From assembly GCA_034433695.1 (NCBI GenBank), contig DAOUAK010000038.1, positions 2,758 to 66,757 of the forward strand: 64,000 nucleotides of DNA, given 5' to 3'. The position numbers and the translations under genes were made by a program. Source of the DNA: Chloroflexia bacterium. GTDB taxonomy: Bacteria; Chloroflexota; Chloroflexia; DTKN01. This document shows positions 8,273 through 45,896 of the stretch, one piece after another. How positions within the stretch are numbered: the first letter of the stretch is position 1; the number at the start of each line of letters is the position of its first letter. The notes beneath the pieces were generated by a model. The model was not told the DNA's origin. It searched no databases and saw only the letters and a list, made by a program, of their open reading frames with translations.

Positions 8273-10411
8273 ATGAACAGGGCCTTGACCTTTTTCCTGC
8301 TTCTCCTCTTCCTTCTGCCGGCGCCGGCCGTATTCGCCGCGCCTTCTCCAGACGCTATCCCGGGAACCTATACCCTGGTTGCTGAAAACGAGAACTTTCG
8401 CCTATACGTCAATCCGGAAACCCTGGCTTTCAAGGTGCTGGACAAGCGTAGCGGTTACCTCTGGCATTCCAGCCTGGACGAAAAACTCCCCGAGGACCGC
8501 CTGAACAGGTCCTGGCTCGCTTTCGCCCAGAGCGGGTTCAGCGTGGACTGTCTGGACTGGAAAGCCAACACTCGGCGGGTTTCTATCGCCAGCGCCGAGC
8601 ACACGATGGAGGTCCGGCCCATTGAAAACGGCCTCCAGGCCCAGGTCACCTTTAGCGATGTGGCCATTTCGGTGGGGTTGCGCCTGATCCTGGAGGAAAC
8701 CGGCGTGCGGGTCGAGGTGCCATTCGAGACCATCCGTGAGGACGGCGACTTTCGCCTGGGCATGCTCCATCTTTACCCCTGGATGGGCGCGACGCGCGGC
8801 GACGAAACGCCCGGTTATATGTTCATCCCCGACGGCTGTGGGAGCCTCATCCACTTCGCCGCCGAGACAAAAGCCCGGAACATGTACTATGGCCGCTACT
8901 ACGGCATCGACCTGGGCATGGTGTCCCACCTGCCTTTCGATCCGGCCATCCGCCGGCCTTATCCCATCTCCATCCCGGTAATCGGCATGGTGCATGGCGA
9001 GGGGCAGAACGCCTACCTGGCCGTCCTGGAAAAGGGCGCGTCCTATGCCGAAATCCAGGCCCATCCCTCCGGCATCCTCACCAACTTTAACTTTCTCTAC
9101 AACGCCTTCATCTACAACGAGAGTTACTTCCAGCGCACCAGCCGGGCCGGCGATGGCGTGACCGTCGTTCAGCCCCGCACCAACCGCTTCGACATCGTCA
9201 TGCACTACCGCTTCCTCACCGGCCGGGAGGCCGACTATGTCGGCATGGCCCGCAGTTACCGGCAGTACTTGCTCGAAAAAGGGCTACTTCGCCGACAGCC
9301 GCTGCCCTCCGACGGCATCGGTATCCGTCTGGAGTTCCTGGCCGCCGAGCAGGAGAAAATCCTGTTCTGGAACCGCACCATTCCGATGACGACCCTGCCG
9401 CAGATGGAGCAAATCCTGGCCGAACTGGACGTTACGAACCCTCAGGTCATCTACTATGGCTGGCAGCCCGGCGGCGCTTCGGCCATGCCGCCTGCCTACC
9501 TGGCCCTGGATGGCAGCCTGGGCACCCTGGCCGACCTGGGCAGGGTGGCCGAACAGGTCGCTCGCCGTGGCGGGGCCTTCGCCTTGTACCTCGATCCCCT
9601 GGCGGCGATCCGGGATCAGGGGGGGTACTCGCGCTACGACCTGGCGGTAGCCATCACCGGCGATTACCCGCAAGGCTACCGGCGGGGAAAGCCCAATTTT
9701 TTCCTCAACCTTCCGGCCCTGGAAGCGCGTCTCGGTTCTCTCGGCCGGGAGATACAGAGCAAGGTCCCGGCCGGCCTGGCCCTGGATAACATCGGCACTA
9801 CCCTGTACTCCGACTTTCGCCAGGACAACCTGCTCAACCGGGAGGAGGCGATCGACGCCTACCGTTCCCTCCTGGCCGCCATACCCGTCCCGCTGGCCCT
9901 GTACATGCCGAACGACTACCTCTTCGCCTATGCCCGGGCCTATTACGATATCCCCATCGCCGACAGCGGCTACATCTATACCACGGCGACGGTGCCTTTC
10001 CTGCAAATCGTCCTTTCCGGCTATATGCCCTACTACGGCGAGGCCCTCAACTTTTCTCCTGACGTGCGCCAGGACCTGCTCCGACACGCCGAGTACGGTG
10101 TCTATCCCTCCTTCTTCCTTACCTACGAGGAAACCGCCCGCATCCTGAAGACCCGGTCGAACTGGATTTACGTCTCCGCCTACCGCCAACTGGAAGCGGG
10201 GATCGAAGATAGTTATGCCTGGCTGAATGCCCTGCTGTCCCCGGTACAGGGGGCCAGCATTGTCGGACATGCACAGGTCGCCCCCCAGGTGTTTGCCACC
10301 ACCTACAGCAACGGCAAGCAGATTCTGGTCAACTATAGCGAGCACCCCGTCTCACTCTACGGCCTCACCGTTCCGGCCCGGGATGCCATCTTGAGGGAGG
10401 TAATGCCATGA
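8273..10411 (+). CDS. Hypothetical secreted protein (712 aa), possible glycan-active enzyme
   Basis: Start at MNRALTFFLLLLFLLPAPAVFAAPSP (signal peptide), 1 nt after the upstream stop. No confidently recognised catalytic motif. Embedded between two ABC permease pairs. Confidence 0.5.
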   Translation: MNRALTFFLLLLFLLPAPAVFAAPSPDAIPGTYTLVAENENFRLYVNPETLAFKVLDKRSGYLWHSSLDEKLPEDRLNRSWLAFAQSGFSVDCLDWKANTRRVSIASAEHTMEVRPIENGLQAQVTFSDVAISVGLRLILEETGVRVEVPFETIREDGDFRLGMLHLYPWMGATRGDETPGYMFIPDGCGSLIHFAAETKARNMYYGRYYGIDLGMVSHLPFDPAIRRPYPISIPVIGMVHGEGQNAYLAVLEKGASYAEIQAHPSGILTNFNFLYNAFIYNESYFQRTSRAGDGVTVVQPRTNRFDIVMHYRFLTGREADYVGMARSYRQYLLEKGLLRRQPLPSDGIGIRLEFLAAEQEKILFWNRTIPMTTLPQMEQILAELDVTNPQVIYYGWQPGGASAMPPAYLALDGSLGTLADLGRVAEQVARRGGAFALYLDPLAAIRDQGGYSRYDLAVAITGDYPQGYRRGKPNFFLNLPALEARLGSLGREIQSKVPAGLALDNIGTTLYSDFRQDNLLNREEAIDAYRSLLAAIPVPLALYMPNDYLFAYARAYYDIPIADSGYIYTTATVPFLQIVLSGYMPYYGEALNFSPDVRQDLLRHAEYGVYPSFFLTYEETARILKTRSNWIYVSAYRQLEAGIEDSYAWLNALLSPVQGASIVGHAQVAPQVFATTYSNGKQILVNYSEHPVSLYGLTVPARDAILREVMP

Positions 10412-35671: not shown

Positions 35672-36946
35672 ATGGATGTACATGCCGTTCGCGCCGATTT
35701 TCCCATCCTCCAACGCACCGTCCACGGCAAGCCGCTCATCTACCTGGATAACGCGGCCACCACCCAGCGGCCGCGCCAGGTCCTGGAGACGCTGGTAACC
35801 TTCTACAGCCACTACAACGCCAACATCCACCGCTCTCCCCACCTTTTGGGCCAGGAAGCCACCCTGCTTTATGCGCAGGCCCACGAAAACGTGGCCCGCT
35901 TCATCGGGGCGGAGGACGAGGGGGAGGTGATCTTTGTCCGCAACACCACCGAAGCCGTCAACCTGGTGGCAAACTCGCTCCTGCGCCGCGAAAGCGGGCC
36001 GCTGCGGTTGCTGCCGGGCGATGAGGTGCTCATCACCGTCATGGAGCACCATTCCAACCTGGTGCCCTGGCAGGCCCTTTCCCAGGAGGCCGGCCTGACC
36101 TTGCGCGTGGTAGACATCCGGGAAGACGGCACCCTAGACCTGGCCGACCTGGAGGCCCAATTGGGGCCGCGCACCCGGCTGGTCTGCTGTGCCCACGTCT
36201 CCAACGTCCTGGGGACGATCAACCCGGTAGCGGAGATTGCCCGTCGGGTCCACGCATCCGGTGCCCTCCTTCTGGTGGATGGGGCGCAGTCGGTGCCCCA
36301 CATGCCGGTGAACGTGCGGGAACTGGAGTGCGACTTCCTGACCTTTTCCGGGCACAAGATGCTGGCCCCCTTCGGCATCGGCGTCCTCTACGGCCGGCGG
36401 GCCCTCCTAGAACGGATGGCTCCCTTCCTCTACGGCGGGGATATGATCGCCGATGTCACGCTGGAGCATTCCACCTGGAACGAGTTGCCCTGGAAGTTCG
36501 AGGCCGGAACGGCCAATGTGGCCGGCGGCATCGCCCTGGGCGGAGCCGTGGACCTCTGGAGCGGCCGGAAACTGGTGGGGGCCGTGGATTACCTCCAGGA
36601 GATCGGCATGGAGCAGGTCCAGGCTCACGAGCGGGAGTTGCTGGCCCAACTCCTGCAGGGACTCCAGGCTATCCCCCGCGTCCGCGTCTACGGCCCCCTG
36701 GAGCCGGAACGGCGGGGGGCAGCCGTCTCCTTCACGGTGGAGGGCAGCAACCCTCACCTGATCGCCCAGTTTCTGGACGACGAGGGCATCGCCGTGCGGG
36801 CCGGCGGCCATTGCGCCCACCCGTTGGCCCGGCGGTTGGGCGTGGCGGGAACGGTGCGCGTCAGCCCTTATATCTACAACACTTCCGAGGAAATCGAGCG
36901 CTTCCTGGATGTTCTGGAGGGAATTGTGAGGAGGCAGGCGCTGTGA
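35672..36946 (+). CDS. sufS: Cysteine desulfurase, SufS-like (class V aminotransferase)
   Basis: FPILQRTVHGKPLIYLDNAATTQ, PLP-Lys region FSGHKMLAPFGIGVLYGR and active-site RAGGHCA. Confidence 0.85.
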   Translation: MDVHAVRADFPILQRTVHGKPLIYLDNAATTQRPRQVLETLVTFYSHYNANIHRSPHLLGQEATLLYAQAHENVARFIGAEDEGEVIFVRNTTEAVNLVANSLLRRESGPLRLLPGDEVLITVMEHHSNLVPWQALSQEAGLTLRVVDIREDGTLDLADLEAQLGPRTRLVCCAHVSNVLGTINPVAEIARRVHASGALLLVDGAQSVPHMPVNVRELECDFLTFSGHKMLAPFGIGVLYGRRALLERMAPFLYGGDMIADVTLEHSTWNELPWKFEAGTANVAGGIALGGAVDLWSGRKLVGAVDYLQEIGMEQVQAHERELLAQLLQGLQAIPRVRVYGPLEPERRGAAVSFTVEGSNPHLIAQFLDDEGIAVRAGGHCAHPLARRLGVAGTVRVSPYIYNTSEEIERFLDVLEGIVRRQAL

Positions 36947-37332
36947 GTACCCGATATACCCCGACGCTGCTGGAGCACTTTACCCACCCCCGCCACGTAG
37001 GGATGCTGGAGGATGCCGACGCTTCCGGCCAGGGAGGGGGAGGACCGCTCTGTCCGGAGGATATGGCCTACGTCTGGATCAAGGTCCGCGAGGGCCGCAT
37101 CGTCGAAATCGGCCACAAGACGATGGGCTGCCCGGTCGCCATTGCCTCCAGCAGTCTGACCTGCTCCCTGGCCGAGGGCAAAACCCTGGAGGAGGCGCTC
37201 CAGATCACCCCGGAGGTGGTCATCGAGGCCCTGGGAGGCGTCCCGGAGCGCAAAGCCGATTCGGTGGTGGCTCCGGAAGCCCTGCGCCGGGCCATCGAAT
37301 CGTACCTGGCCTCCCATGTCTCGGGTGAATGA
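36943..37332 (+). CDS. sufU: SufU/NifU-like Fe-S cluster scaffold
   Basis: GTG start overlapping the sufS stop. LEHFTHPRHVG...CPEDMAYVWIKV...GCPVAIASSS matches the IscU/SufU three-Cys pattern. Confidence 0.75.
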   Translation: MSTRYTPTLLEHFTHPRHVGMLEDADASGQGGGGPLCPEDMAYVWIKVREGRIVEIGHKTMGCPVAIASSSLTCSLAEGKTLEEALQITPEVVIEALGGVPERKADSVVAPEALRRAIESYLASHVSGE

Positions 37333-37344
37333 ACCTCAAATCCT

Positions 37345-37367
37345 ATCGAGGGCCCAGGGCCCTCGAT
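37345..37367 (+). terminator. Perfect 10-bp GC-rich hairpin just after sufU (terminator candidate without a strong U-tract)
   Basis: ATCGAGGGCC-cag-GGCCCTCGAT, 13 nt downstream of the sufU stop. Confidence 0.35.
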
Positions 37368-37405
37368 CTTCGGGTGCCGCCCTCCAACTGTGTAACCTAT
37401 CACAT

Positions 37406-37434
37406 TTGACAAAGGGAAGACTTCGTGGTATAGT
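37406..37434 (+). promoter_or_regulatory. Near-consensus sigma70 promoter TTGACA-N17-TATAGT
   Basis: ttgaca aagggaagacttcgtgg tatagt. Lies ~285 nt upstream of the PRC-MgtE_N-CBS gene start, which leaves a long leader. Confidence 0.45.
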
Positions 37435-37441
37435 TTATTTA

Positions 37442-37719
37442 TCCCCGTTCGGCCTGGCCGGCGGGGTTGGAGGTTGCGTTTCGATGGACGAGGATTATCA
37501 ACGTAGTCGGGGACTGTGCGAGTCCGGGTGCGGGGCATCCGACCCGGGGGAGGTGGCTATGCCGATAGCCACCTGATCTTTTCCCCCGGTTCCCCCGCCT
37601 GAGGTCCCCCAGTCCCCTCCGAGATCGAAAGTACGCAAAACTTCAAAGCCATCTCATAGGATGTACAGGTGGAGTACCGGGTCCAGCCGTATGGGCCTGG
37701 GAACCACGGGAGGTGGACC
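37442..37719 (+). promoter_or_regulatory. Structured 5' leader with internal intrinsic-terminator-like hairpin (candidate riboswitch/attenuator)
   Basis: ~110 nt of GC-rich nested hairpins. Then GGTGGCTAT-gccg-ATAGCCACC followed by TGATCTTTT (37552..37582). The enclosing CCGGGGGA/TCCCCCGG arms can alternatively pair across the U-tract. Confidence 0.35.
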
Positions 37720-38976
37720 GTGCCGTATGTCAGCACGCTCCTGGGGAAGCCTGTTACCGACGTGGAAGGCAACCGCGTCGGCCGGCTGCAGGACCTCGTT
37801 GCCTCGCTCCGGGGTGCCATGCCCCATCCCATGATTGTGGCCCTGGCCGTCCGGAATCCCGAGGGCCTTCGCCTGGTCCCCATTTCTTCCGTGGCCGTCC
37901 TGATCGCTCCGGCCATTCCCCTCCGCCATCGCCTGCGGGATATTCCCTCTTACACCCCGGGCGAGCAGGAACTGTACCTGGCCCGCGATGTGCTCGATAA
38001 GCAGATCATTGATACCCGTGGAGCGCGCGTGGTGCGGGTCAACGACCTGGAACTGGCCCGGATCAACAACCACTTTTATGTGGCCAATGTAGACGTCGGT
38101 GGGCTGGGACTTTTGCGACGCCTGGGACTTGCAGGCCCGGTCGAGAAGATCGCCCGCTGCCTGAAGCGCCCGCTCCGATCCGTCAGCATCTCCTGGGACG
38201 CGGTCGAACTCCTCCCTGGCCAGAACTCGATGCGCCTGAAGGTGCCGGGGGAGAAACTGGCCGAACTGCACCCGGCCGACCTGGCCGAAATCATCAGCGA
38301 CCTCAGCCGCGTTGAGGGAAGCCGGTTGATCGAGACACTCGATGTCAAGACCCTGGCCGATACCCTGGAGGAGATCGAGCCGGACTTCCAGGCCAGCCTG
38401 ATCGAAGCCATGCCCGACGAGAAGGTGGCCGATGTGCTGGAGGAAATGGCCCCCGACGAGGCGGCGGACCTTCTGGCCGAACTGCCCCAGGAACGCAGCC
38501 GGGAACTCCTGGAACTGATGGAGGATGAGGAGGCCGAGGACGTTCGGAAACTGCTGGCCTATCCGGAGGACACGGCCGGCGGCATTATGAACACCGAGTT
38601 CGTCGCCATCCGCCCCAACCTGACGGCGGAGGAGGCCATCGCCGTCCTGCGGGAGACGGCCCACGAGGCCGAGACCATCTATTACGTGTACGTTACGGAT
38701 GAGGAGGGCCATCTCCTGGGGGTGTTCTCCCTGCAGGACCTGGTGCTGGCCCAGCCCAAGACGCCGGTAACCGACTTTATGCACCACCGCGTGGTCAACG
38801 TCCATCTGCGCGACAGCCAGGACAAGGTGGCCCAGATCGTGGCCAAGTACAATTTGCTGGCCGTACCGGTGGTGGACGATGAGGGTCGGATGCACGGCAT
38901 CGTCACCGCCGATGACGCCCTGGATAAGATCATTCCCACCGCCTGGAAGAAACGCCTGCCGAAGATGTGGGGGTAA
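37720..38976 (+). CDS. Soluble PRC-barrel (x2) + MgtE_N + tandem-CBS protein, with no MgtE membrane domain
   Basis: GTG start with GGGAGGTGG RBS. PRC-like LLGKPVTDVEGNRVGRLQDL. MgtE N-domain acidic helices (PDEKVADVLEEMAPDEAADLLAELP). Two CBS motifs. Ends before any TM region. Confidence 0.7.
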   Translation: MPYVSTLLGKPVTDVEGNRVGRLQDLVASLRGAMPHPMIVALAVRNPEGLRLVPISSVAVLIAPAIPLRHRLRDIPSYTPGEQELYLARDVLDKQIIDTRGARVVRVNDLELARINNHFYVANVDVGGLGLLRRLGLAGPVEKIARCLKRPLRSVSISWDAVELLPGQNSMRLKVPGEKLAELHPADLAEIISDLSRVEGSRLIETLDVKTLADTLEEIEPDFQASLIEAMPDEKVADVLEEMAPDEAADLLAELPQERSRELLELMEDEEAEDVRKLLAYPEDTAGGIMNTEFVAIRPNLTAEEAIAVLRETAHEAETIYYVYVTDEEGHLLGVFSLQDLVLAQPKTPVTDFMHHRVVNVHLRDSQDKVAQIVAKYNLLAVPVVDDEGRMHGIVTADDALDKIIPTAWKKRLPKMWG

Positions 38977-38978
38977 AG

Positions 38979-40235
38979 ATGACGTTCGGGCAACGTTTCA
39001 GGCCGTTCTGGGTACGCCTCCTGGCCTTCCTGTCGGTCATTGGGCCGGGCATCATCACCGCGAATGTGGATAACGATGCCGGCGGCATCACGACCTATTC
39101 CGTCGCCGGTGCCCACTATGGCTACGATCTGCTGTGGATGATGCCGCTGGTCGCGCTGGCCCTGATCGTGGTGCAGGAGATGAGTGCCCGGCTGGGAGTG
39201 GTCACCGGACGGGGGCTGGCCGCGCTGATTCGGGAGAACCTGGGGGCGCGCCTGACGGCGGTGGTCATCGGCATCCTGGTGCTGGCCAATCTGGCCAACA
39301 CGGTGAGCGAATTTGCCGGCATCGCCGCCGGCATGGAGATCTTCGGGGTCAGCAAGTACATTTCGGTGCCGCTGGCCGGCCTGGCGGTGTGGCTGCTCGT
39401 CATCCGGGGCAACTACCGTTCGGTGGAAAAGGTCTTCCTGGTGGCCAGCGGACTTTACCTTTGCTATGTGGCCTCGGGCCTCCTGGCCCGGCCCCGGTGG
39501 GAAGAGGTCCTCCACGCCCTTGTCCGGCCCTCCTTCCGCCTGGAGAGCGGCTTTATGACCATGGCCATCACCATCGTGGGAACGACAATCGCCCCCTGGA
39601 TGCAGTTCTACCAGCAGTCGGCCATCGCCGACAAGGGGTTGAAGCCGGCCGATTACCGTTACGAGCGGCTGGATGTGATCGTGGGCTCCCTCTTTGCCGT
39701 CTTTGTGGCGGCCTTTATCACCATTTCCTGCGCTGCCACCATCTACGGCCGCGCTCACATCGAGACGGCCCAGGACGCTGCCCGGGCGCTGGGTCCGCTG
39801 GCCGGCCCCTACGCTTCCACGCTCTTTGCCTTCGGCCTCCTCAATGCCTCGCTTTTTTCGGCAGCCATCTTGCCCCTCTCCACCGCCTATGTGGTCTGCG
39901 AAGCCTTCGGATGGGAATTGGGCCTGGGCCACCGGTGGAAGGAAGCCCCCATCTTCTTCGGGACTTTTACGGCCCTGATCGTCCTGGGAGGCGGGGTGGT
40001 CCTTTTGCCGATCCCTTCGCTGGTCCAGGCGATGATGTTCAGCCAGACCCTCAACGGCATCCTTCTGCCGCTCGTCCTGGTGGTGATGCTCCGCCTGGTC
40101 AACGACCGTCGCCTGATGGGCCATTTCGTCAATGGTCGGGTGCTCAATGCCTTCTCCTGGGCCTCGGCGGGATTGGTCATCCTGCTCACGGCCCTTCTGG
40201 TGCTCAGCCCCTTTCTGCCCGTTCCGGGCACTTGA
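38979..40235 (+). CDS. mntH: NRAMP-family divalent metal (Mn2+/Fe2+) transporter
   Basis: GPGIITANVDNDAGGITTYS and LLWMMPLVALALIVVQEMSARLGVVTG are NRAMP hallmarks. ~11 TM helices. Confidence 0.85.
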   Translation: MTFGQRFRPFWVRLLAFLSVIGPGIITANVDNDAGGITTYSVAGAHYGYDLLWMMPLVALALIVVQEMSARLGVVTGRGLAALIRENLGARLTAVVIGILVLANLANTVSEFAGIAAGMEIFGVSKYISVPLAGLAVWLLVIRGNYRSVEKVFLVASGLYLCYVASGLLARPRWEEVLHALVRPSFRLESGFMTMAITIVGTTIAPWMQFYQQSAIADKGLKPADYRYERLDVIVGSLFAVFVAAFITISCAATIYGRAHIETAQDAARALGPLAGPYASTLFAFGLLNASLFSAAILPLSTAYVVCEAFGWELGLGHRWKEAPIFFGTFTALIVLGGGVVLLPIPSLVQAMMFSQTLNGILLPLVLVVMLRLVNDRRLMGHFVNGRVLNAFSWASAGLVILLTALLVLSPFLPVPGT

Positions 40236-40249
40236 TTCGGAGGAGGAAG

Positions 40250-41968
40250 ATGGCCCGTCCTCGCCGTTTTGCGCCGTTCCTTCCCCCGGGCCCCCTCTTC
40301 GATGTGGGGGACCTGGCGGTGCTCGTCGCCCTGGCCGGCATCCTTTACCTGGGCGTGCGGGTAGCGATGGGCACGCCGGCGATCTTGCCGGGGCCGGAGA
40401 TTCGCCGGGAGGCCTGGGCCTTGCCCGTCTATGCCCTCTTCTCTCTGGGTCGGATGCTGGCGGCCTATATTCTCTCCCTGTCCTTCAGCCTCCTTTACGC
40501 CCGTATCGCCGCCCGGCGGGCGCTGGCCGGCCAGGTCATGCTTCCCCTCCTGGATGTATTGCAATCGGTGCCGATCCTTTCCTTCCTGCCGGTGGTGCTC
40601 CTCGGACTGTCGGCCGTCCTGCCTTCCGGTCTGGCGGCCGAACTGGCTGCCATCGTCCTCATCTTCACCAGCCAGGCCTGGAACCTGACCTTTTCCTTCT
40701 ACCAGGCCCTCCAGACCATCCCCAAGGAACTGGACGAAGCCGCCCGCACCTTTCGCCTGTCCGACTGGCTACGCTTTCGCCGACTGGAACTGCCCTTTGC
40801 CGCACCGGGCCTGATCTGGAACACCATCATGTCCTGGGCCGGCGGCTGGTTCTTCCTGATGGCCGCCGAATCCTACACAGTGGGAGAGCGGGACTTTCGC
40901 CTGCCCGGCCTGGGGGCCTACCTCCAGGAAGCCGCCCAGGCCGGAGACGTGCAGGCCCTTCTCCTGGGGGTAAGCGCCCTGGTCGTCCTGATCGTCCTCC
41001 TGGATCAACTGCTCTGGCGGCCGCTTTTGGCCTGGGGAGAACGCTTCCAACTGGAGATGGTCGAATCGCAAGAGCCGACCTCCTCCTGGCTCTATAGCCT
41101 CCTCCAGCGTTCACGTCTTCTTTCCGGACTCCAGCGCCGGCTGTTCCGGCCGCTCCTGGAATGGCTGGACATGCGTTTTTCCCGGCCGCCCCGGGAGATT
41201 GCGGAGGGGAATACGCCTTTACTGCGCCGGCTGGCCGTGTATACCCTGGGGGGTATCCTGGCCGGCGGCCTCCTCTATGGTGCCTTTTGGGCCGGCGGCT
41301 GGCTCCTTTCGTTGCCGGTAGCCACCTGGGGCGAGATCGCCCTGGGTACACTGGCTACTTTCCTGCGAGTCGCCGTGGCTATCGGCCTTTCCCTGCTCTG
41401 GACGGTGCCATTGGGCATCCTGATCGGCACCCGTCCTCGCCTGGCCGCCCTATTGCAGCCGGTGGTGCAAATTCTGGCTTCCGTCCCGGCCACGGCCCTC
41501 TTCCCCATCTTTCTCCTGCTCCTTTTGCGCCTGCCGGCCGGGTTACAAATTTCCTCCCTTCTCCTTCTGATGACCGGAAGCCAGTGGTACCTCCTCTTCA
41601 ATGTCATCGCCGGCGCCTCGGCCATCCCCCAGGACCTGGAATTCAGCACCAAACTCCTGGGAGTACACGGCTGGGGGCGATGGCGCATCCTCCTTCTGCC
41701 CGGCATCTTTCCCTACTTGGTGACCGGGATGATCACCGCCAGCGGCGGTGCCTGGAACGCCAGCATCGTCGCCGAATATGTGGTCTTTGGCGGGCAGAAG
41801 CAGAGCGTCACCGGCCTGGGGGGGCTGATCTCCCTGGCTACGGAAGAAGGAAACTATCCCCTCCTCCTGGCTGCGACGCTTACGATGATCGTTACCGTCG
41901 TGTTGCTCAACTGGCTCTTCTGGCGCCGGCTTTACCGCCGGGCCGAGGAACAGTATCGGATGGATTAG
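40250..41968 (+). CDS. ABC transporter permease with two tandem permease domains fused (NitT/TauT-like)
   Basis: ATG with GGAGGAGG RBS. 572 aa with two repeats of a ~6-TM binding-protein-dependent permease unit. The 39134 ORF N-terminal extension overlaps NRAMP and is rejected. Confidence 0.8.
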   Translation: MARPRRFAPFLPPGPLFDVGDLAVLVALAGILYLGVRVAMGTPAILPGPEIRREAWALPVYALFSLGRMLAAYILSLSFSLLYARIAARRALAGQVMLPLLDVLQSVPILSFLPVVLLGLSAVLPSGLAAELAAIVLIFTSQAWNLTFSFYQALQTIPKELDEAARTFRLSDWLRFRRLELPFAAPGLIWNTIMSWAGGWFFLMAAESYTVGERDFRLPGLGAYLQEAAQAGDVQALLLGVSALVVLIVLLDQLLWRPLLAWGERFQLEMVESQEPTSSWLYSLLQRSRLLSGLQRRLFRPLLEWLDMRFSRPPREIAEGNTPLLRRLAVYTLGGILAGGLLYGAFWAGGWLLSLPVATWGEIALGTLATFLRVAVAIGLSLLWTVPLGILIGTRPRLAALLQPVVQILASVPATALFPIFLLLLLRLPAGLQISSLLLLMTGSQWYLLFNVIAGASAIPQDLEFSTKLLGVHGWGRWRILLLPGIFPYLVTGMITASGGAWNASIVAEYVVFGGQKQSVTGLGGLISLATEEGNYPLLLAATLTMIVTVVLLNWLFWRRLYRRAEEQYRMD

Positions 41969-41980
41969 GGGAGGAAACCA

Positions 41981-43291
41981 ATGGCCCAGAACGGGGTTCT
42001 TCTGGAATTGCGCAACATCCGCCAGGTCTACGGACGCGGCCCTCGTGCCATCGTCGCCGTGGAGGGGGTTAATCTAACGGTGCGGCGGGGCGAGTTCGTA
42101 GCCCTGCTGGGACCTTCCGGCTGCGGAAAAAGCACCCTCCTGCGCATCATCGCCGGCCTGAACGTGCCTACGGAAGGGGAGGTGCTCTACCACGGCCGGC
42201 CGTTGCGGGGAGTCAACCCTCATGCTACCATCGTCTTCCAGACCTTTGCCCTTTTCCCCTGGCTGACGGTGCTCGAAAACGTCGAGGTGGCCCTCCAGGC
42301 CCGGGGCATCCCCTTGCCCGAGCGCCGGGAGCGGGCCCTGGCCCTCCTGGACAAGGTTGGTCTGGATGGCTTTGAAAACGCCTATCCCCGAGAACTTTCG
42401 GGGGGGATGCGTCAGAAGGTGGGTTTTGCCCGGGCCATGGCCGTCGAGCCGGAACTTTTGTGCCTGGACGAACCGTTTTCTGCCCTGGATGTGCTTAGCG
42501 CCGATGCCCTGCGGGGCGAACTCGTCGAACTGTGGACCGGAGGCCAGATTCCCACCCAGGCCATCATTCTGGTTACCCACAACATCGAGGAGGCCGTCTT
42601 CCTGGCCGACCGCATCGTGGTGATGGAGACGCGACCGGGGCGCATCGCCGCCGAGGTGGTGGTCGGTCTCCCCCATCCCCGCCAGCGCAAGGGAGAGGAT
42701 TTCCTGACCACCGTGGATCGGGTCTATGCGGCGGTGGCCGGCCAGACCCAGCCGCCGGCCGTGGAACTGGGCACGGCCCCCGGCGAGCCAGGCCGGACGC
42801 GGGCCCTGCCCCCGGCCTCCGTCAGTGCCCTCTCCGGGCTGATCGAGCACCTGGACGAAGAGGTGGGCAACCGGGAAGACCTCTACCGCCTGGCCGACGA
42901 CCTGCGCATGGAGATCGATGAACTCTTGCCGGTGGTGGAGGCCGGGGAACTGCTCAATTTCCTCCGGGTGGACCAGGGCGATGTCATCTTGACGCCGCTG
43001 GGAGAGACCTTCGCCGAGGCCAGCATCCTGGCCCGTAAGGAAATCTTTGCCTCCCGTGCCCGCCGCATCCCGCTCATCCGCTGGCTCCTGAAGGGGCTGC
43101 GGGCCGCCCCGGAGGGCCGGGTGCCGCGCCGGGTCTTCCAGGATGTCCTGGAGTGGGAGTTTACCCCGGAGGAGGCGAAGGTACAGATGGATCAGGCCAT
43201 CGCCTGGGGGCGCTACGGCGAACTCTTCGGCTACGACGACGACCGGGACCTGCTCTACCTGGAGACGAACGGCTCGGGATCGGCCGCCTGA
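41981..43291 (+). CDS. ABC transporter ATP-binding protein (NitT/TauT-type) with ~180-aa C-terminal AAA-associated extension
   Basis: Walker [10 protein letters not shown], signature LSGGMRQKV, Walker [13 protein letters not shown]. Extra C-terminal domain follows [12 protein letters not shown]. Confidence 0.85.
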
Positions 43292-43301
43292 TTCCCCGGA
43301 A

Positions 43302-43802
43302 TTATTGCCCACAATAGGGGCAGACCGTCCAGGTCAGGTCCATCAATCGGCCGCAGGACAGACACTTTTTCCGAAGCGGGGTATGGCAATGGGGGCAGAG
43401 GATAAAGTCCGGTTCCACCCCCCGCTGGCAGGTGGGACAGAGGGGACGCTCCTCGATATCCTGCATGATGTATTCTCTCTCCAGGGCACGGGCGTAGCCC
43501 TCGGCCAGCGTCTCCCGGGGGCGGAACAGGAGGTAAAGCCAGTAACCGGGGAGAAAGAGAAGGAGCACCACCAAGGTGGCCAGGAGTTGCGCCGGCAGAC
43601 TCTCGCTGCGGGCACGGACATCCTGATAGGTCCAGACCACCAGGCCCAACCACACAACGGCCAGATAAATGCCCAGGACATAGCCAACGATCTCCAGGAT
43701 GGGCAAAGCCCGGGCCAGGAAAAGTTGGATCTCGGGGGGAAGGAACGACATTGTCGTCGTTTCGGTAACGGTTTGGGCCAGATGCAAACCCCAGGGTTCC
43801 AT
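43302..43802 (-). CDS. Membrane protein with C-terminal double zinc-ribbon
   Basis: Start chosen at MEPWGL with GAAGGAGG RBS, because the longer ORF overlaps darA. Two TM helices. C-terminal CPTCQRG...CPHCHTPL...CLSCGRL...CPYCGQ. Confidence 0.5.
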   Translation of the reverse strand: MEPWGLHLAQTVTETTTMSFLPPEIQLFLARALPILEIVGYVLGIYLAVVWLGLVVWTYQDVRARSESLPAQLLATLVVLLLFLPGYWLYLLFRPRETLAEGYARALEREYIMQDIEERPLCPTCQRGVEPDFILCPHCHTPLRKKCLSCGRLMDLTWTVCPYCGQ

Positions 43803-43881
43803 CAAAGAAAGCCTCCTTCGTCCATCGCAAATTCGCACCGAAATCGGCGGAAAATCATCCCGGCTTGAAACGGACAACGTT

Positions 43882-44232
43882 CTACCGATCGACGGTATCC
43901 AGTTGTCGCCATTCTTCGATCGGCAGGATAAAGACATGGGCGCCGCCGACCTGCACCTCCACCGGAGCGGGAGGGAAGAGCCCGCCGGTTTCCAGAAGCG
44001 GGGAGACCGGGCTCAGGTAACGGGTGCGGGCGTGGCAGTGGGTCCGAATCACCTCCAGGGCCTTTTCCACGGCCCCTTCGTCCCCGGCCAGGAGGAGGGT
44101 ATCGTTGGCTTCCATCAGAAAGCCGCCGATGCTGGCCACGTGGGTGAAGTTGAACCCGGCCTCTCCCAGTGCCCGGCCCAGTTCTTCCAAATCCCGTCGC
44201 TGGATAATGGCGATCAGGAGTTTCAAGGCCAC
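43882..44232 (-). CDS. darA: PII-like c-di-AMP receptor, DarA/PstA (DUF970) family
   Basis: [20 protein letters not shown]...[19 protein letters not shown]...[18 protein letters not shown] closely parallels Bacillus DarA (KLIVAIVQDQD...ATTGGFLRAGNTTFLCG...PVEVEVGGATVFVMPV). GTG start overlapping the upstream stop. Confidence 0.7.
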
Positions 44233-45896
44233 GGTTCCCCCCCTTCTTCCCGGCGAAAGATGCGCACTCGACGTTTGGGTTCCTGCCCCTGGCTGGCCGA
44301 AGCCAGGCGGTAGCGCTCGATCATCTGGTGTTGCAGCCGGCGGATGTAGGCGTTCTGGGGTGCCAGTTCCACCTCTTCCCGTTCGCCGCTGAGCACCTGC
44401 CGGATGGCCTCCTCGGTCTCCTGCAAGGCCCGGAGAACGTCTCCTTCGGTGGGGCTGCGGCGTTCGGAGAGTAGGTGCAGGCAGTTCTCCATCTGCACGG
44501 CGGTGTTGGCCTTGAGGACATAGATGGGGACGCCGGCCTCCTCGGCCTCGCGCAACCGGCGGGGAGACTGGCGATAATATCCCTGGAGGGTGATCACGGC
44601 CTGGGCCTGGGCCAGTTCATCCACTAGGACGACCGGCATCTGGAGCAGGCGGGCAGCCCGGGCCAGGCGCTTCCGGTTGACTCCGAACGGGTAGATGCGC
44701 AGCGGCGTATCGGGGGTAGGCGAGGGGGATTCTTTTTCCTCCTTTACGGCCGGCGGATATCCTTCTTTTCGAGGCAAAACCCGACGGCCGGCCTCGGCGT
44801 GGCGTCTTTCCAGACCGCCGCCGAAGTAATTCCGCTCGATCCAGCGTTCGATCTGGCCGTCCTCGCGGCGGTGGCGAATCTCCGCCGGGGCCGGAAAGCC
44901 GCGCAGGAGCGAATCGACCACCTCGGCCACGTTGCGATGGACGGCCACCGTGTCCCAGTCCTGAATCTCCACCACGATGTCAAAGGTCGGCGGGGCCTTG
45001 CGTTCCAGGATGGTCTTCTGGGTTCCCCGCCGACGGGCCTCCTCATCGCCCAGCGTGACCGGCTGGATGCCCCCCAAAAGGTCGGAAAGGGTTGGGTTGA
45101 GCATCAGGTTCTCCAGGGTATTGCCGTGGGCCGTGGCCACCAGTTGCACGCCCCGCTCGGCGATGGTGCGGGCCGCCGCCGCCTCCAGTTCGGTGCCGAT
45201 CTCGTCAATGATGATGACCTCGGGCATATGGTTTTCCACCGCCTCGATCATCACCGCGTGCTGACGGTCGGGGCTGGGCACCTGCATCCGGCGGGCCCGG
45301 CCGATGGCCGGGTGAGGGATGTCACCGTCGCCGCCGATCTCGTTGGAGGTATCCACAATGATGACCCGCTTGCGAAAGTCGTCGGCCAGCACGCGGGCCA
45401 CCTCGCGGAGCATGGTCGTCTTGCCCACTCCCGGTCGGCCCAGGAGGAGGATGCTCTGTCCCGTCTCGATGAGGTCCTGGATGACGGCGATCGTCCCGTA
45501 GACGGCCCGTCCCACCCGGCAGGTCAGGCCGATAATGCGGCCGTCCCGGCTGCGGATGGCGGAGATGCGGTGCAGGGTCCGGGCGATACCGGCACGGTTG
45601 TCGCCGCTGAAGAGGCTGATGCGGGCCAGGACGTAATCCAGGTCCTCCTGGGTGACCTCCCGTTCGCTCAGGATGACTTCGCGGCCCGGGAAACGGGCCT
45701 CCGGCGGCCGGCCCAGGTCCAGCACGATCTCCAGGAGTTCGCTCAGTTCAGGCTCCCGACGCAGGGGGTCGTGGAGGCGGGGAGGGATGGCCTCTAGAAG
45801 GGCATCCAGGTCATCGGTCACCCGTTTCTGAACCACCGGAAGTTCCGGTGGATCGGAAGGTATCCTTTCTCTTCGAATGGTTACCGGAATCTTCAT
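44223..45896 (-). CDS. R3H-domain AAA ATPase (Ycf45/SpoIIIAA-like)
   Basis: Walker [10 protein letters not shown], Walker B VIIIDEIG and C-terminal R3H-like segment. Real start at MKIPVTI. The 230-codon Pro/Gly-rich upstream extension of the ORF is rejected. Confidence 0.75.

Follow-up and report, generated by a model that had tools for sequence, protein, structure and literature searches.

Organization of the locus

The genome of a Chloroflexia bacterium (GenBank assembly GCA_034433695.1) carries, in a stretch of 64,000 nucleotides (contig DAOUAK010000038.1, positions 2,758 to 66,757 of the forward strand; 'the window' below), four consecutive genes, here denoted A to D, that are separated by gaps of only 2-14 nt and are preceded by one strong promoter and a ~285-nt leader (Table 1). 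Gene A encodes a soluble PRC-MgtE_N-CBS protein, gene B an NRMT-type member of the NRAMP transporters, gene C a permease of the ATP-binding cassette (ABC) type and gene D an ABC ATPase. We lean towards a model in which the locus consists of two independent two-gene modules, A-B and C-D, sharing one promoter and leader, and in which A brakes the Mg2+ influx through B. An earlier reading of the same DNA from its letters alone (the sequence-only reading) had proposed this four-gene layout; calls of open reading frames (ORFs) and Pfam searches agree with it, placing MgtE_N, CBS and PRC in A, Nramp in B, BPD_transp_1 twice in C and AAA_assoc_C in D.

Table 1. Features of the A-B-C-D locus; positions are those of the window, RBS denotes a ribosome-binding site
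Feature	Position	Strand	Length	Remarks
Sigma-70-type promoter	37406-37434	+		TTGACA, 17-nt spacer, TATAGT, TG extension; 11/12 matches
Structured leader RNA	37468-37620	+	~150 nt	contains a short ORF, a long-range helix and a terminator-like hairpin
Leader ORF	37484-37576	+	30 codons	MDEDYQRS..., own GGAGG RBS
Terminator-like hairpin	37551-37574	+		found by terminator scan; T-run follows; leader ORF stops at its 3' end
Long-range helix of the leader				GGGGACUG pairs with CAGUCCCC
Gene A	37720-38976	+	418 aa	GTG start after GGGAGG RBS
Gene B	38979-40235	+	418 aa	ATG 2 nt past the A stop
Gene C	40250-41968	+	572 aa	ATG 14 nt past the B stop
Gene D	41981-43291	+	436 aa	starts 12 nt past the C stop

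Homologous loci were collected in two ways. A species-level genome scan, in which 484 stretches encode a relative of A, provided 80 Chloroflexota loci with an A protein 60-76% identical to that of the window, and 80 metagenomic C-D loci were fetched via the C-terminal domain of D. Single loci from these sets are denoted L001, L002 and so on.

Gene A encodes a detached MgtE cytosolic module

Pfam assigns to gene A an MgtE_N domain (4.8e-28), two CBS domains (2.3e-20) and a PRC domain (1.3e-06), and does not find the five-helix transmembrane pore domain of MgtE, PF01769. Residues 177-405 align to residues 22-253 of the channel TtMgtE (E about 1e-45), and the AlphaFold2 model of A superposes on the TtMgtE structure 2YVY at an rmsd of 2.0 Å, with 39% identity and, normalised to 2YVY, a TM-score of 0.84; a Foldseek search with the model returns 2YVY at E=1.7e-23. 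The fold of the N domain and the tandem CBS domains is the same as in TtMgtE (2YVX/2YVY). These data bear out the sequence-only reading of A as an MgtE N-domain and tandem CBS module that has been detached from its transmembrane pore. A differs from TtMgtE in lacking the plug helix, the pore and the Mg1-Mg3 sites and in carrying an extra PRC-like N-terminus and a basic C-terminal tail.

The PRC-like N-terminus spans ~175 residues and is conserved as strongly as the remainder of the protein. It had been read as two PRC barrels. The whole protein scores 28.7 bits against the PRC profile, above the cut-off of 21.2, whereas the two halves of the N-terminus searched singly reach 18.9 and 15.2 bits, both below it. 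Aligned to each other with hhalign, the halves match weakly (24 columns, 9% probability). In the AlphaFold2 model residues 10-86, which form the first barrel, are confident, and residues 89-177 have a predicted local distance difference test score (pLDDT) below 50. A PRC-like N-terminus is thus present; two barrels are plausible but not established.

A matches the MgtE family model TIGR00400 only in part (207.8 bits against a cut-off of 232.75, profile positions 25-252 of 450), as would the 5' fragment of a full-length mgtE that had been disrupted in a pseudogene or by an assembly artefact. The sequence-only reading had itself allowed for such a split gene with a transmembrane ORF downstream. 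However, A homologues share the 418-aa length, the stop and the conserved tail, and relatives recur across the species-genome scan. When 1.84 billion cluster representatives were searched with A, 1,695 clusters matched at E<1e-30. Among the related representatives, many are 400-440 aa long and align with A end to end, and the pore-less architecture is common to more than 100 clusters at 50% identity. No ORF for an MgtE pore was found anywhere in the window (tblastn best E 0.017), and the next gene encodes an intact NRMT. This conservation, together with the absence of a pore ORF from the window, excludes a broken mgtE for practical purposes, and we regard it as vanishingly improbable.

A second class of relatives, ~600 aa in length, aligns to residues 1-404 of A and combines PRC, MgtE_N, CBS and the MgtE pore according to Pfam (for example P0261, P0263, P0294 and P0341). 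Because of these proteins we consider A to be a pore-less paralogue of a PRC-extended MgtE channel. The full-length proteins have an acidic plug, 'EEATEDI', at the position at which the soluble proteins have a basic LPTAWKKRLPR tail; the C-terminus of A in the window reads IIPTAWKKRLPK. This tail, (I/L)(I/L)PTAWKKRLPR(L/M)(Y/F), is essentially invariant in 79 of the 80 Chloroflexota homologues and is still recognisable in representatives that are merely 46-65% identical to A.

Mg2+ and ATP sites of A

The cytosolic Mg2+ sites of TtMgtE, Mg4-Mg7 (PMC5882242), were mapped onto the alignment of the 80 A homologues. The Mg4 ligands D91 and D247 correspond to D246 and D399 of A, the Mg6 ligand D95 to D250 and the Mg5 ligand D250 to D402, all of which are invariant in 79/80 sequences. 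The Mg7 ligand E59 corresponds to D214, a position held by Asp or Glu, and the second Mg5 ligand, D226, to N378, which is Asn throughout. A thus retains five of the six cytosolic Mg2+ ligands.

The ATP site in the CBS pair of TtMgtE comprises Y170, R187, D188, N203 and F227 (Tomita et al., PMC5529423). F227 stacks ATP, and the F227A mutant has lost ATP binding (PMC5529423). Among the A homologues the equivalent of F227 is Leu in 77/80, that of N203 is His or Glu and that of R187 is variable, with the Tyr retained. Of the Mg/ATP-sensing role that had been suggested for A, the Mg2+ part therefore stands, whereas ATP sensing appears doubtful given these replacements.

Gene B encodes an NRMT-type transporter

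That gene B encodes an NRAMP transporter is confirmed by Pfam (Nramp, 5.5e-103), but it can be assigned more precisely. B matches EleNRMT from Eggerthella lenta (PDB 7QIA) over its whole length at E=1e-117, compared with ~1e-22 for canonical MntH structures. EleNRMT is an Mg2+/Mn2+ transporter without proton coupling, and the roles of its residues Glu133 and Gln379 and of the helix 6b histidines have been described (PMC8806188). The motifs NDAGG in transmembrane helix 1 and GTTIAPWM in transmembrane helix 6 are identical in B and 7QIA, and they fit the signature of the NRMT clade of PF01566, which has Asp-x-Gly-Gly in helix 1 and Thr/Ala-Pro-Trp instead of Ala/Met-Pro-His in helix 6. In B, APW replaces MPH in transmembrane helix 6 and the proton-path histidines of helix 6b are gone, 'SEFAGIA' is conserved and Glu133 and Gln379 are kept, such that the metal-site residues are the same as in EleNRMT (Asp, Gly, Thr and Ala, Trp for His, Glu133 and Gln379). 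In view of this similarity and of the identical motifs, B very probably imports Mg2+ with the membrane potential as the driving force. The sequence-only reading had overlooked the NRMT identity of B, which is what gives its pairing with A a meaning.

NDAGG is present in 74 of the 80 B-type genes of the surveyed loci, and 69 of these also have TTIAPW. A second NRMT subtype, ~50% identical to B and marked by NDA(P/S)G and TT(I/M)TPWG, lies downstream of A in L002, L005, L010 and L011; its A partner is still ~75% identical to A of the window.

The A-B pair and a model for its function

A gene with the NRMT signature lies directly downstream of A in 79 of the 80 loci, as seen in a genomic survey of the kind that had been suggested for MgtE_N-CBS proteins beside NRAMP genes. 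The exception is L007 (7806-11735), in which an A homologue of 71% identity has no NRMT gene beside it and is followed by a large ORF of ~850 aa.

The pairing has a published precedent. Shin et al. (2014, PLoS Genet, PMC4072509) reported that a gene for the cytoplasmic domain of MgtE stands in front of most genes of the NrmT clade, with C. acetobutylicum Ca_c0685 and A. capsulatum ACP2976/ACP2977 among the examples. They speculated that the fragment provides cytoplasmic feedback regulation of transport and also offered a chaperone as the alternative. In these mgtE-like + nrmT operons the order is the same as in the window, a pore-less MgtE-domain gene standing immediately upstream of the gene for an NRAMP-related transporter. 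The window differs from them by the appended ABC pair and by its leader: an M-box riboswitch is frequent, if not universal, upstream of the published operons, whereas the window has none and instead carries another structured leader. The text of Shin et al. contains neither 'PRC' nor 'CBS', and the PRC-like extension and the basic tail of A are not mentioned there. EleNRMT was studied alone, and its paper (PMC8806188) does not discuss an MgtE-like partner. Our literature search found no paper later than Shin et al. that tests the regulation of NrmT by an MgtE fragment. The sequence-only reading had offered A as a trans regulator of either the NRAMP transporter or the ABC system. The adjacency in 79/80 loci links A to the NRAMP gene, whereas the ABC system does not emerge as its partner (see below). 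A as a putative regulator of the NRAMP transporter is a reasonable hypothesis with good support from context, though not a new one.

We propose that B, like EleNRMT, would take up Mg2+ (and Mn2+) along the membrane potential with no coupling to protons. Such an uncoupled carrier would have no built-in brake, and A may supply one. At high cytosolic Mg2+, ions bound at the interfaces of the N domain and the CBS domains would lock A as a compact dimer. Approaching from the cytoplasm, compact A would then act on B, in all likelihood by means of the invariant basic C-terminal tail, which stands at the position of the acidic plug helix of MgtE, and the Mg2+ influx would be lowered. The analysis shows what the parts are, that A and B stay adjacent, that C-D is independent and that Mg2+ ligands are retained; we infer the physical contact between A and B, the direction of the regulation and the role of the tail.

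Several points speak against such a brake. One Mg5 ligand is Asn in A, and the plug-helix ligands of Mg2 and Mg3 are absent. NrmT works without its partner, co-expression of ACP2976 with ACP2977 gave no better rescue of a Mg2+-transport-deficient strain, and ACP2977 appeared more like a Mn2+ importer (Shin et al., PMC4072509). EleNRMT transports by itself in liposomes (PMC8806188).

A could also be linked to B without being a Mg2+-dependent gate, serving as a metal chaperone or buffer or responding to Mn2+ or another ligand, with its PRC part tethering it to a different partner. The chaperone offered by Shin et al. and the preference of the A. capsulatum B homologue for Mn2+ (PMC4072509) would fit such a role, as would the transport of Mn2+ by EleNRMT (PMC8806188), the diverged ATP-site residues and the conserved N-terminus of ~175 residues, which has no counterpart in TtMgtE. 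However, the acidic residues that A has retained are those that mediate Mg2+-dependent closure in TtMgtE (PMC5882242), and the full-length PRC-MgtE proteins share the N-terminus, which makes the PRC part an accessory of the sensor rather than the sign of a new function. We consider a role of A other than gating to be rather unlikely and prefer the Mg2+-dependent brake.

If A does act as a brake, the detachable MgtE sensor would be the first regulatory domain of a Mg2+ channel to control, in trans, a transporter of unrelated fold. The role of the MgtE-like partner of NRMT carriers has been a question since 2014, to which the locus adds nothing categorically new. It does offer handles, namely a highly conserved 418-aa partner, the retained Mg2+ ligands, the lost ATP-stacking residue, the invariant basic tail and the full-length PRC-MgtE relatives.

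Genes C and D encode an ABC pair of the nitrate/taurine type

Both features that the sequence-only reading had described in the ABC pair were recovered. Gene C holds two BPD_transp_1 stretches in one polypeptide, that is, two fused permease domains of the NitT/TauT-like type, and its nearest matches are the permeases for bicarbonate (CmpB) and nitrate (NrtB). Gene D combines ABC_tran (4.4e-34) with a C-terminal AAA_assoc_C extension (PF09821, 6.6e-37). The ATPase of D and the permease of C together have the composition of a nitrate/taurine/sulfonate-type ABC system. The PF09821 tail of D is modelled by AlphaFold2 (pLDDT 86.6) as tandem winged-helix-like; its Foldseek matches are weak, and all are winged-helix domains. 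Searching the PDB by sequence with this domain gave designed-repeat noise and no solved homologue.

In the metagenomic loci that leave room for it, C almost always stands immediately upstream of D. As side observations, D is represented in L098 (9980-10435) solely by its PF09821 part, which may be a stand-alone AAA_assoc_C protein, and in L137, L147 and L148 (about 9131-10405) no fused permease could be recognised upstream of D at E<1e-8.

The annotated neighbours of C-D in the window, taken to a distance of ~5 kb, include no gene for a substrate-binding protein (SBP). The neighbourhood was surveyed more widely in 85 C-D loci, with 1,893 flanking ORFs clustered all-against-all and the 136 nearest ORFs assigned to Pfam families. 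No SBP cluster appeared among these neighbours and no SBP family among the top 25 Pfam families of the 136 ORFs; no cluster of any kind within 5 kb exceeded 9/85 loci, the top one being a generic ABC ATPase. An importer without an SBP gene, as had been proposed, is thus borne out for the vicinity of the locus, to which the search was confined.

A system of this architecture is described in Ca. Liberibacter asiaticus. CLIBASIA_02420/02415 consist, like C-D, of a permease with tandem transmembrane domains and a nucleotide-binding domain with a PF09821 tail (predicted winged helix), with no periplasmic binding protein detected, and Li et al. (2012, PMC3688454) considered that they might be a novel system of the Nrt/Ssu/Tau-like type. 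The pair in the window differs in belonging to another phylum and in being placed in one operon with a Mg2+ transporter pair. Both the A-B pairing with its regulator hypothesis (PMC4072509) and the ABC architecture (PMC3688454) are therefore already published as uncharacterised associations, which the sequence-only reading had missed. The ABC half of the locus matters only as a further example of a widespread uncharacterised transporter without an adjacent SBP gene.

The two modules are separable

C-D follows A-B in only three of the 80 A loci (L001, L013 and L030). In 76 loci, 75 of them with an A-B pair, C-D is missing from the fetched flank. Conversely, gene A was found in none of the 80 metagenomic C-D loci. 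Close relatives of the window tell the same story. In L168/L169, where A is 90% identical at the amino acid and 85% at the nucleotide level, the leader is followed by A-B and then by a convergent gene, whereas in L167, where D is 95% (amino acid) and 87% (nucleotide) identical, the leader is followed by C-D. Between the leader and C, L167 (2735-3103) has kept the RBS of A (GGGAGATGG) and the 3'-terminal ~26 nt of B. This remnant indicates that A-B was cleanly deleted there from an ancestral leader-A-B-C-D arrangement. The four A-B-C-D genomes (the window, L001, L013 and L030) do not form a clade in the A tree; their scatter and the scar in L167 suggest that the arrangement is recurrent but unstable, and that each module survives alone. 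In our reading, A-B and C-D came to lie side by side through a local accident of gene order and are not obligatorily coupled in function. C-D would then be an autonomous NitT/TauT-like ABC transporter that is co-transcribed with the Mg2+ sensor-transporter unit but stands outside it.

Not all of the evidence favours this separation. The four genes are very tightly packed, with gaps of 2-14 nt; the same order recurs in three genomes scattered over the A tree; the RBS of A and the last ~26 nt of B before C show that A-B-C-D was ancestral in the L167 lineage; one leader type precedes either A-B (window, L168, L008) or C-D (L167, L087, L081); and in L127 an NRMT-like gene comes straight after D. 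ArsR-type regulators occur near C-D in 6/85 loci. These observations would suit a single system under one metal-responsive leader, in which A senses Mg2+ and controls both NRMT and the ABC transporter, or in which C-D is a high-affinity, ATP-driven importer of Mg2+ or another metal that complements a low-affinity B. However, such coupling is hard to reconcile with the 76/80 A loci that have no C-D in the fetched flank and with the absence of A from all 80 metagenomic C-D loci, and relatives of 85-87% nucleotide identity hold either module alone, each of which is thus viable without the other. Furthermore, C and D resemble nitrate/bicarbonate/taurine-type importers and not metal importers, and C-D is found in bacteria such as Liberibacter, described without an MgtE-like partner (PMC3688454). 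We consider a single four-gene system to be decidedly improbable and retain the reading of two independent modules.

The NRAMP-like gene of L127 (889-2067) belongs to the second NRMT subtype and is the only such gene beside a metagenomic C-D pair.

Promoter and structured leader

The hexamers of the promoter are identical in L167 and L168, and in these two loci and the window the leader is conserved from the promoter to the RBS. Downstream of the hairpin lies a C-rich, G-poor tract. A covariance model of the leader, built from five sequences and run on 2.1 Mb of fetched loci, has its only matches in front of A (window, L168/L169, L008) or in front of C (L167, L087 and L081, the last at 31.6 bits). 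Elsewhere the leader ORF has 24-45 codons and starts with MD(E/K/G), and the conservation of its first codons extends to synonymous sites. In an alignment of six sequences, three of them close relatives, that was fitted to the model, 87.9% of cells are paired, against 43-54% when the partners are slid, and 18 pairs are changed on both sides, against 4-8 when slid; in the long-range helix 93.9% are paired and 6 of the 11 pairs are compensatory. These pair counts speak for the structure. The minimum free energy z-score of the leader is -3.19.

Rfam searches gave no match at E<=1 in positions 36000-44500 of the window and none at gathering score in 15 related loci, so that neither an M-box nor another known riboswitch was found upstream of A in these sequences. 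The leader looks like an attenuator or a riboswitch-like element. It might constitute a new cis-regulatory RNA or leader-peptide attenuator that drives either A-B or the PF09821 ABC pair in related Anaerolineae, a suggestion that we put forward very tentatively and think unlikely to hold. If it did hold, both modules would form one regulon, and there would be a first functional clue, divalent-cation homeostasis, for the SBP-less ABC family.

In Salmonella, the mgtA and mgtCBR operons for Mg2+ transport are preceded by long leaders (with mgtL and mgtP) that combine a short ORF, alternative RNA structures and a termination signal. The leader in the window, present in six related Anaerolineae loci, shares no sequence or Rfam similarity with these, and its peptide is not proline-rich. 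The significance of the locus rests mainly on the unclassified leader and on the handles that the locus offers for the question raised in 2014.

A different conserved element is found in the 5' untranslated region, about 90 nt upstream of A, in the related loci L003, L004, L009, L005 and L018. It consists of CTGGCAG..., a GC hairpin, TTTG and TGCCAGGAGG, which overlaps the RBS. This element was considered as a feature of the window, but it is absent from there and from most other loci.

Surroundings of the locus

Within ~5 kb upstream, the annotation lists glycosyltransferases, a creatininase-family protein, a cysteine desulfurase (class-V aminotransferase) and a NifU_N protein; within ~5 kb downstream, on the opposite strand, it lists a zinc-ribbon protein and an R3H/AAA protein. 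When the flanks of the window were compared with all fetched loci, no synteny above 45% identity was detected.

In L081 (1595-9302), where D is 85% identical, C-D lies downstream of a sulfur/selenium-type cluster that comprises a class-V aminotransferase, a YeeE-like Sulf_transp protein, TusA, a SelD-like AIRS protein and Se_S_carrier. The class-V aminotransferase and NifU genes upstream of the promoter in the window are not close orthologues of the genes in this cluster. The window ORF at 36328-37332 overlaps the end of the aminotransferase gene, and its NifU_N domain is confined to residues 210-329, which indicates that the true start probably lies far later, near 36950.

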